Source: a virus
DNA length: 15,838 nt
Reading direction: 5' to 3' (one strand)
IMG/VR virus record: IMGVR_UViG_3300010430_003968
Shown here: positions 6,546 through 7,525 of the stretch, piece by piece
Position numbering within the stretch: position 1 is the first letter of the stretch
How the letters are laid out: each line of letters starts with the position of its first letter
Translations under genes and position numbers: made by a program
The notes under the pieces: generated by a model
What the model was told of the DNA's origin: nothing
Seen by the model: only the letters and a program-made list of their open reading frames with translations
Databases searched by the model: none

Positions 6546-7346
6546 ATGGGAAGGAATCCAGGACCACCTGATGATCCCAATGAAATGAAAGATGGTAGAT
6601 ATAATATCAATACCGGAGAATTTAGTGATATTTGGGATACCGATGAAGATACAGATAAAAGTAGAATCTGGGGAACCGACGAGTACTTCCGCAGAATAGA
6701 ACTTTCACGTGATGAGTGGGACACCGGATTAGAAGATTATCCCGGGATGACTCATAGAATAAAGCGTGAAACAGAAATAAGAAAAAATGCTGAAAGAATA
6801 AAAGAAGATGCAAGAAGAATATCAAACAATGCAAAAAGATTTTCAGATAGAATCAAAATTGATGCTGAGAAAATAAGAGCAGATGCAAGAGATGCCGCTC
6901 AAAGAGTAAGAAATAAAGTAGATCAAGAAAGTGCGGCGGCAAGGCTAGAGGCACAAAAAGAATTATTAAGGGATTATAATTTTACACCAACTCCAAGGAT
7001 AAAGAAAACAAAAAGGAGATTTAAATTGTCAAGCAAAAGTGGTGGTATAGGAATATTTGGTATTTTATTTTGGGGATTCCTTATGTTTAATATGTGCAGT
7101 GATGATGATTCTGATACCACAGCCAAGGTTGTGGATACAAGCACAGATACCAATTATACAGAACAGATAAAAGAATCTATTGATAAGTTAAAACCTGAAG
7201 CAGAAAAACTTATCAATCAGGCAAAGGATGAGTTAAAGAAAGTCACCTCTGAAAAGAAAGTGGCAAAAACAAAAACTGAAGGAAACACAAGTGATCCATA
7301 TAGTCAACCGGACGACAGATACGGAGGCACAGAAGACAAATGGTAA
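6546..7346 (+). CDS. Membrane-anchored repeat protein. It has an acidic N-terminus with three I/EW(D/G)T(D/G) motifs, then heptad repeats A-x-[RK]-[IFV]-x-x-D, a single TM helix (GGIGIFGILFWGFLMFNM) and a Lys/Thr-rich C-terminus.
   Basis: Good RBS (AAAGGA) upstream. The domain layout is read directly from the translation. Confidence 0.65.
   Translation: MGRNPGPPDDPNEMKDGRYNINTGEFSDIWDTDEDTDKSRIWGTDEYFRRIELSRDEWDTGLEDYPGMTHRIKRETEIRKNAERIKEDARRISNNAKRFSDRIKIDAEKIRADARDAAQRVRNKVDQESAAARLEAQKELLRDYNFTPTPRIKKTKRRFKLSSKSGGIGIFGILFWGFLMFNMCSDDDSDTTAKVVDTSTDTNYTEQIKESIDKLKPEAEKLINQAKDELKKVTSEKKVAKTKTEGNTSDPYSQPDDRYGGTEDKW
6786..6923 (+). repeat. Imperfect ~21-nt (heptad) tandem repeats inside ORF 6546-7346 encoding AERIKED/ARRISNN/AKRFSDR/.../AEKIRAD/.../AQRVRNK.
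   Basis: Periodic gc[at]-[ag]a[ag]-a[ag]a-[at]t units are visible in the DNA, and A-x-R-I-x-x-D recurs in the protein. Confidence 0.45.
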
Positions 7347-7525
7347 AATGGATAAAAAATACAAAGGCGTTCACTTTGATAGAGGTAATGGTTGTTGTAG
7401 TTATTTTTGCTATATTACTAGCGATAGCTATACCGAATTTCATATCATACTTAGAAAAATCAAATGAAAAACAACAGATAGAACAAATAGAAAAAAAGAA
7501 AGGAACACACCAAGGAGTATATTAA
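7340..7525 (+). CDS. Type IV prepilin / pseudopilin-like mini-protein (61 aa): short basic leader MVKWIKNTKA, then FTLIEVMVVVVIFAILLAIAIPNF.
   Basis: The FTLIE motif followed by a ~20-aa hydrophobic helix and a Pro matches the N-methylation (class III) signal of pilins, apart from Ala instead of Gly at -1. The ATG overlaps the upstream stop by 7 nt. GGAGG lies 11 nt upstream. Confidence 0.5.
   Translation: MVKWIKNTKAFTLIEVMVVVVIFAILLAIAIPNFISYLEKSNEKQQIEQIEKKKGTHQGVY

Follow-up and report, generated by a model that had tools for sequence, protein, structure and literature searches.

A candidate headless type IV pilin encoded beside the recombination nuclease genes of an uncultured T4-like phage

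We describe a small gene in a 15,838-nucleotide stretch of viral DNA (IMG/VR virus record IMGVR_UViG_3300010430_003968; this whole stretch is called the window below) whose predicted product, as comparison with related sequences supports, is a headless type IV pilin, with the N-terminal signal and helix of a pilin but no globular domain. The open reading frame (ORF; 7340..7525, + strand) comprises 61 codons plus a stop and encodes MVKWIKNTKAFTLIEVMVVVVIFAILLAIAIPNFISYLEKSNEKQQIEQIEKKKGTHQGVY, hereafter the mini-pilin; it exists and translates as quoted in a sequence-only reading of the same DNA, which had proposed that it is pilin-like. Matches to profile hidden Markov models (HMMs), homologs, and the pattern of substitutions mark it as a gene. 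We put the probability at about 0.4 that this protein acts as a dominant-negative or surface-altering subunit of a type IV filament of the host.

The pilin pattern picked out by the sequence-only reading (FTLIE with Glu5, a hydrophobic helix, and a Pro-containing turn) scored above the curated cutoffs of two family models. Pfam PF07963 (N_methyl), whose gathering score is 21.2, matched with 36.6 bits (E=2.8e-9), and NCBIfam TIGR02532 (IV_pilin_GFxxxE) matched with 31.1 bits against a cutoff of 16.3. The leader peptide, MVKWIKNTKA (7340..7369), is 10 residues long and has a net charge of +3, and prepilin peptidase is predicted to cut after Ala10. The mature protein would be 51 residues long and would start with FTLIE; in mature numbering, Phe1, Thr2, Glu5, and Pro22 are all there. 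Mature residues 1-24, FTLIEVMVVVVIFAILLAIAIPNF (7370..7441), correspond to the hydrophobic alpha1-N helix, in which both Glu5 and Pro22 lie, as judged from the HMMs, the invariant columns of the family, and an AlphaFold2 model. Some 21 hydrophobic residues, broken by Glu5, follow the cleavage site (FTLIEVMVVVVIFAILLAIAI-P), and the Kyte-Doolittle maximum of this helix is 3.24. The remaining 27 residues, ISYLEKSNEKQQIEQIEKKKGTHQGVY (7442..7522), form a charged tail that is predicted to be periplasmic and that carries an x-I/V-E-Q family motif and a hydrophobic last residue. Collectively, these features support the view that the N-terminus is a genuine signal peptide of class III, the type IV pilin class.

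The Ala at position -1 had been called noncanonical, a view that we do not share. The leader of type IV pilins is defined in current work as ending in Gly or Ala, so Ala at this position is no anomaly, and in Streptococcus sanguinis, all five ComG pilins have Ala at -1 and are cleaved by ComC (PMC10191384, PMC7212644). Ala and Gly also alternate within the mini-pilin family. The PROSITE PS00409 check suggested in the sequence-only reading gave a split result: the strict pattern, which allows only Gly at -1, does not match the window mini-pilin because of its Ala and for no other reason, and the same pattern with [GA] at -1 does match. The strict pattern is matched by ten relatives of the mini-pilin that have Gly at -1.

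The AlphaFold2 model, built with a 20-sequence alignment, is a single long helix spanning residues 13-53, with a predicted local distance difference test score above 90 for residues 11-40 and of 50-64 in the tail. A globular head domain has left no trace in this model, in agreement with the earlier statement that the protein has essentially none. A Foldseek search of the model against the PDB returned no matches, a lone helix being uninformative as a query. In the NCBIfam scan, the equivalog models of lollipop-shaped pilins (PilA_Myxo, GspG, ComGC/D/E/F, and PpdD) stayed far under their cutoffs and matched the N-terminus only. Pfam and NCBIfam scans gave no Flp family match that would place the protein among the Flp/Tad (type IVc) pilins; its motif is A/FTLIE, followed by a type IVa-like helix, as opposed to the G/XXXXEY processing motif of Flp/Tad pilins.

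The mini-pilin belongs to a family whose members share its length. A search of 5.8 billion proteins returned 14 homologs, all 61-73 residues long and all with PF07963. When 1.84 billion cluster representatives were searched with a profile, 229,294 matched, which amount to the whole pilin superfamily, and among the best of these were many more proteins of 59-83 residues with the same build as the mini-pilin. The sequence-only reading had raised the question of whether homologs lose the FTLIE motif. They do not: the (G/A)-F/Y-T-x-I/V-E core and Pro22 are kept by all 29 family members examined, each 59-83 residues long. Thr2, Glu5, and Pro22 are invariant in these 29 proteins, Phe1 is replaced once (by Tyr), and 18 of them have Ala at -1 where the other 11 have Gly. 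In an alignment of 20 diverse members, Thr2, Glu5, Val9, Ile12, and Pro22 are invariant, and the tails have in common a P/Q-x-I/V-E-Q motif and a hydrophobic last residue (Tyr or Leu). This last residue is hydrophobic or aromatic throughout, being Tyr in the clade of the window (lineage A) and mostly Leu in a second lineage, lineage B. The tails are otherwise poorly conserved, with only their composition kept across the family. Within the window clade, the leader is nearly invariant.

The rates at which the parts of the protein change can be compared in lineage B, where the identity of the neighboring gene product, gp47, ranges from 52% to 89%, that of the 24-residue helix from 58 to 92%, and that of the tail from 12 to 60%. 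Even in pairs with gp47 86-89% identical, the tails are just 39-60% identical, so the tail evolves much faster than gp47. In both phage lineages, the residues predicted to serve peptidase recognition and filament docking are kept while the remaining protein diverges. When the first 36 codons are compared among the mini-pilins of the window and of two related IMG/VR contigs (L001 and L002), roughly half of those that differ carry synonymous changes only, and the replacements are conservative (V/I/L/A exchanges). We conclude from this conservation that the mini-pilin ORF is a real gene. Its start codon and the stop codon of the ORF before it overlap (ATGGTAA, 7340..7346, +), which suggests translational coupling, and L001 and L002 share this overlap.

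The mini-pilin was also compared with six pilin-like PHROG families (phrog_10597, 11263, 13280, 27437, 11596, and 3433). The best match was phrog_27437, with 43 bits over positions 5-55 of a 140-position profile, and phrog_10597 gave 26.9 bits, compared to 139.9 for a true member from phage Ab06. No full-length, high-scoring match to any of the six was found; the matches cover the helix only, and the window mini-pilin is therefore a separate family that is in no PHROG. At least 211 contigs in IMG/VR encode pilin-like N-termini, and most of these proteins are full-length, at about 140 residues. About 30 similar viral loci (L028-L097) carry a full-length pilin-like family of this size (MKNNKGFTLIELIMVTIILGILAAVAIPRY...). 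In some contigs these genes form tandem pairs, as in L050 (IMG/VR 3300030330_005136; 3995-4420 and 4430-4858), and the tandem genes lie within a replication module with a primase, with a gp47-like gene about 2.3 kb downstream.

The second constant feature of the family is its position beside the genes of a recombination nuclease. In the window, the mini-pilin lies directly upstream of gp46, which encodes an SbcC-like (Rad50-like) nuclease subunit (7532..9715, +; phrog_77, E=1e-86; ATG start). The mini-pilin stop (TAA, 7523-7525) is followed 6 nt further on by the gp46 ATG at 7532. This position, and the location of the stop inside the 11-mer TAACGGGGGAT, are as the sequence-only reading had described them. 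The 11-mer (7523..7533, +) runs from the TAA of the mini-pilin through a stretch of G residues into the gp46 ATG. A second copy (448..458, +) holds the stop of a gp55-like gene and a G-run that resembles a Shine-Dalgarno sequence and precedes by 7 nt the GTG start of gp47, which encodes an SbcD-like (Mre11-like) nuclease subunit (465..1448, +; phrog_100, E=8e-64). The 11-mer thus occurs twice in the window, against 0.13 expected by chance, once before each nuclease subunit gene. Both genes may share it as a signal for translation initiation or for regulation by which the gp47 and gp46 subunits are kept in balance.

The same arrangement is found in L001 and L002, whose gp46 proteins are 62-70% identical to that of the window and whose mini-pilins, of 63-64 residues, occupy the same slot; the order common to all three is a major vault protein (MVP)-like protein, a transmembrane (TM) protein of about 250 residues, the mini-pilin, and gp46. 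In lineage B, all ten mini-pilin clusters from loci with enough flanking DNA (P0013, P0014, P0029, P0091, P0046, P0033, P0041, P0126, P0154, and IMG/VR L020) lie directly upstream of a gene for an SbcD-like gp47, which in most of them they overlap by 4 nt, and gp46 follows. Translation of the mini-pilin would thus often be coupled to that of the nuclease. The P0021 mini-pilin lies in a block of small ORFs, with no nuclease gene within its 4.6-kb contig. The gp46 and gp47 proteins of lineage B are only 21-27% identical to those of the window, and its gp47 is nearer to the nucleases of Herelleviridae and huge phages than to T4-like ones. Together with the pilin helix, it is this place beside gp46/gp47 that the mini-pilin family conserves most.

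Two broader regularities were considered and rejected. The mini-pilin does not form a two-gene module with its upstream neighbor, which is a 266-residue TM protein in the window clade and an unrelated 113-residue soluble protein in lineage B. Nor is a small membrane ORF universal before gp46/47. Non-pilin small hydrophobic ORFs lie directly before gp46 in L182 (45 residues, 2759-2896) and L184 (49 residues, 2855-3004), two more distant relatives of the window phage with gp46 35-43% identical, and T4 47.1 (L178 5445-5585, -) is a 46-residue predicted membrane protein that overlaps the start of gene 47. Such an ORF is absent in phages PG7, Aswh_1, CBB, Bullseye, BUDD, and S-B68. Occupancy of this slot by small membrane ORFs is recurrent, not universal. 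In lineage B, genes for radical-SAM and WYL_2-domain proteins lie just downstream of gp46 (L003 9975-11347, L013 9675-10929) and a PTPS/QueD-like gene lies upstream; these genes may form a DNA-modification module.

We hypothesize that the mini-pilin interferes with a host filament from within. Its class III signal peptide would lead to insertion in the host inner membrane via the SRP (signal recognition particle) and Sec route, with the leader cytoplasmic and the charged tail periplasmic. The host prepilin peptidase would then cut after Ala10, and the 51-residue product would join the membrane pool of (pseudo)pilins, with the docking elements Phe1, Glu5, and Pro22 but without the head that forms the filament surface. 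The target could be the type IVa pilus, or possibly the type II secretion system (T2SS) or the Com pilus. With the mini-pilin expressed alongside the early/middle replication-recombination genes, the infected cell would no longer display a functional pilus receptor, and the phage would benefit through superinfection exclusion, with no progeny wasted on cells that are already infected.

The conserved tiny residue at -1, Phe1, Glu5, and Pro22 fit prepilin-peptidase recognition and docking in the filament or its platform, and a plain membrane anchor would need neither a buried Glu5 nor a tiny residue at -1. The non-late context, with homologs of gp55, gp47, gp46, and UvsX nearby, also favors this proposal, as do precedents from other phages, by analogy. 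Prophage mimics of FimU (P-FimU) are built into the Pseudomonas aeruginosa pilus and block phages that bind the pilus tip (Sztanko et al., Cell Rep 2026, PMC12952977). Truncated PilA proteins of approximately the N-terminal 60 residues are encoded by six virulent Pseudomonas phages, and their incorporation or an inhibition of assembly has been proposed (PMC12952977). The earlier suggestion that the window protein caps or poisons type IV pilus (T4P) or T2SS assembly for superinfection exclusion agrees with this idea of Sztanko et al. for truncated PilA and is plausible.

The window has no tRNAs from which a host might be inferred, and Pfam and PHROG scans found no type IV filament machinery genes in it. 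Several observations weigh against a role in the host filament. A scan of genome contigs for the pilin of the host gave, among the matches listed, only generic proteobacterial pilins with at most 50% helix identity, and no genome pilin that combines Ala at -1 with the IPNF motif. The lock to gp47/gp46 in two distant lineages is left unexplained by such a role, as is the presence of non-pilin small hydrophobic ORFs at this site in T4 (47.1) and more distant relatives. In addition, the C-terminal HQGVY of the mini-pilin is conserved in the window clade, and this conservation may be partly at the DNA level, given that its CAAGGAG codons may be a ribosome-binding signal for gp46.

As a close variant, we considered that the mini-pilin may never enter a filament and may instead be a decoy in the inner membrane. 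There it could take up the full capacity of the prepilin peptidase, or pilin-sensing kinases of the PilS or PleC type could mistake it for a full pilin pool, such that expression of the host pilin gene is shut off. In P. aeruginosa, truncated pilins bring about repression of pilA, as do those of Geobacter. Passages in PMC13170266 (citing Kilmury & Burrows 2016) and PMC6058289 describe how an inner-membrane build-up of (pre)pilin is detected by PilS and lowers pilA expression, and in Caulobacter, the cell cycle receives a signal from membrane-resident PilA monomers (PMC7196804). Such effects need just the N-terminal helix, which is exactly the conserved part of the mini-pilin. However, the invariant Glu5 and Phe1 point equally to docking in a filament, and a transcriptional shut-off is slow compared to a lytic cycle, so we regard a decoy as unlikely. 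Whether the protein acts in the filament or as a decoy, the outcome would be alike: the infected cell would lose its pilus receptor, leading to superinfection exclusion.

A different possibility starts from the position of the gene rather than from its pilin residues. The mini-pilin could be a partner of the gp46/gp47 (Rad50/Mre11-like) nuclease, with the pilin-like signal being mainly a device for insertion; it could tether the nuclease to the membrane, or nuclease synthesis could be localized there by SRP targeting of the shared mRNA. In the extreme version, the nuclease may be coupled to a pilus or to a competence-type site of DNA handling, and in other phages this role may, by analogy, be taken by small membrane ORFs of unrelated sequence, T4 47.1 among them. 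T4 genes 46 and 47 have an old, unexplained link to membrane-associated DNA metabolism, for which this partnership, if true, would provide a molecular handle. The placement directly before gp47 in ten of ten lineage B clusters and directly before gp46 in lineage A, a linkage that holds between nucleases as divergent as those of the two lineages, is in its favor. So are the unrelated small hydrophobic ORFs in the slot in T4, L182, and L184 and the identical 11-mer before both nuclease genes in the window. Still, adjacency in phage early regions is often mere co-expression, the six T4-like phages named above have no small membrane ORF there, and the mini-pilins of cultured phages are not beside gp46/47. 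Once the leader is cut off, hardly any of the protein would face the cytoplasm, where the nuclease acts, and the strict Glu5, Pro22, and Gly or Ala at -1 would have no explanation. We therefore find a nuclease partner rather improbable.

The mini-pilin could also be a generic small membrane effector, for example one that blocks injection in the manner of Imm or that times lysis, which arose from a captured pilin N-terminus and no longer involves the filament machinery. T4-like phages encode many small membrane proteins, and the mini-pilin tail is short, charged, and poorly conserved. Its hydrophobic or aromatic last residue (Tyr or Leu) recalls the C-terminal signals for periplasmic PDZ proteases, of which AlgW is activated by a truncated PilA ending in FTF (PMC3684759). 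This role is nevertheless quite improbable: residues specific to pilins are invariant over a deep divergence and would not be needed in a generic anchor, and Pfam, PHROG, and NCBIfam scans found no match of the mini-pilin to holin, spanin, or Imm families. Finally, although the ORF is short, is overlapped by other short ORFs on both strands, and is of low-complexity composition, the idea that it is no gene at all but a chance ORF whose hydrophobic run imitates the pilin motif is refuted by HMM E-values of 1e-7 to 1e-9, length-conserved homologs at the same position in many contigs, and substitutions rich in synonymous changes, and its probability is close to nil.

The surroundings of the gene are those of a phage, as the sequence-only reading had it. 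In addition to gp47 and gp46, the window encodes a gp55-like late sigma factor (85-450, +; Pfam/PHROG homology) and a UvsX homolog (10584-11711, +; homology), and we identify it from these homologies as the T4-like replication/recombination region of a phage. All of its long ORFs are on the + strand, its GC skew is positive throughout, and its GC content is about 35%. A terminator-like GC hairpin with a T-run (6275..6292, +) follows the MVP-like gene and is probably the upstream border of a unit made up of a 72-residue ORF, the 266-residue ORF, the mini-pilin, and gp46. The T4 late promoter motif TATAAATA does not occur in the whole 15.8-kb window, against 2 occurrences expected by chance. With no such motif in the window and a terminator-like hairpin before the unit, early/middle expression of the mini-pilin is likely. 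The 266-residue protein (6546..7346, +), which has one predicted TM segment (GGIGIFGILFWGFLMF) and a charged, probably coiled-coil N-terminal part, is kept in the window clade only; it matches no Pfam or PHROG family and has no counterpart in lineage B.

A megablast search of window positions 6500-9800 against cultured phages gave no match, and the best phage match of gp46 by tblastn was to Xanthomonas phage BUDD, at 26% identity. Upstream, positions 3770-6265 (+) encode an 831-residue homolog of the eukaryotic major vault protein (MVP_shoulder, E=6e-25, and Vault_3), residues 476-767 of which align with MVP 478-773 (PDB 4hl8, E=8e-9). This gene is kept in L001 and L002 and has no PHROG family; its only matches in the phage collection were to the huge uncultured phages LR756500, LR756501, and LR756503, at 41-43% identity. 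The earliest description of viral MVPs is from two gut phages (bioRxiv 10.1101/2023.11.10.566534). A link between mini-pilins and SPFH or MVP-like proteins, hinted at by an SPFH gene 2.3 kb from the mini-pilin of BUDD, was rejected because the large proteins have no mutual similarity.

Phage copies of pilus subunits have only recently been shown to act in anti-phage defense, with P-FimU, and the window adds a well-defined and widespread family of headless mini-pilins from uncultured phages. The strong constraint on the pilin residues, combined with a fast-evolving tail, provides a clean case for studying what an alpha1-only pilin can do to type IV filament assembly, prepilin processing, and pilin sensing. 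That the mini-pilins adjoin the gp47/gp46 recombination nuclease genes so strictly in two lineages very far apart was unexpected; this linkage, if functional, would tie membrane and pilus biology to phage DNA processing.

The mini-pilin is phage-encoded and similar to a T4P structural subunit, and it belongs in the group of phage T4P mimics. P-FimU of F10-like Pseudomonas phages is likewise a phage-encoded protein of the type IV pilin family; it enters the host pilus pathway and protects against pilus-dependent phages (PMC12952977). P-FimU is, however, a full-length minor pilin with a head and extra loops, it is expressed from a prophage, the pilus stays functional, and its action was tested by experiment, whereas the window mini-pilin is headless and comes from an apparently virulent T4-like phage.

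Small pilin-like genes in cultured virulent phages were found by blastn with the 5' end of pilA, which matched Ab06, BUDD, and PX29 as well as Xanthomonas phages X1 and JGB6. The tblastn search of phages with the 61-residue mini-pilin gave no match even at E<=1, probably owing to the low-complexity filter; tblastn of phages with PAO1 PilA returned bacterial-like records only, and literature searches on pilins of marine or T4-like phages yielded nothing relevant. ORF_028 of Nankokuvirus vB_PaeM_PAO1_Ab06 (59 residues; full-length phrog_10597) resembles the mini-pilin in being a protein of about 60 residues in a virulent myovirus, and the role proposed for the truncated PilA proteins of Pseudomonas phages, pilus interference, may by analogy extend to the mini-pilin. 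ORF_028 nonetheless belongs to another family, with Gly at -1 and no Pro22, and is not beside gp46/47. Aeromonas phage PX29 gp038 (31 residues), annotated in GenBank as "similar to N-terminal part of fimbrial protein (pilin)," and Xanthomonas phage BUDD USV40915.1 (82 residues) also consist of a pilin N-terminus. Like the window phage, PX29 and BUDD are T4-like or large virulent phages, and their hosts are piliated. Their proteins differ from the mini-pilin in length and tail and lack the family-specific motif, and their genes lie near nrd genes or in a block of small ORFs rather than beside gp46/47. The likeness of T4 gp47.1 is positional only: it fills the same slot as the lineage B mini-pilins, but it has an apparent hydrophobic hairpin and no pilin signature.

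The closest cellular comparison is with the naturally headless PilA-N of Geobacter ("geopilin domain 1"; 9egp, 7tgg, 2m7g, 6vk9), which is similar to the mini-pilin in length and, with M. xanthus PilA, provides its best solved-structure matches (9egp, E=7e-22; 7tgg). Alpha1-only pilins can, to judge from this headless match, enter filaments. The PilA-N leader, MLQKLRN(K/R)KG-FTLIEL, is near those of P0029, P0091, and P0065 and resembles that of the window, and several family leaders read MLQKL[KR]NTK[AG], nearly the Geobacter pattern. PilA-N is, however, a cellular major pilin that is paired with a separately encoded PilA-C, and its tail is unrelated to that of the mini-pilin, which has gp46 and an unrelated 266-residue protein as its neighbors and no adjacent PilA-C-like gene of the kind that accompanies a Geobacter-type split pilin. 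Truncated pilins in virulent phages have already been noticed, both in published work and in the annotation of a GenBank entry; what is new is the family described here and the fixed way in which it is coupled to the genes of the recombination nuclease.

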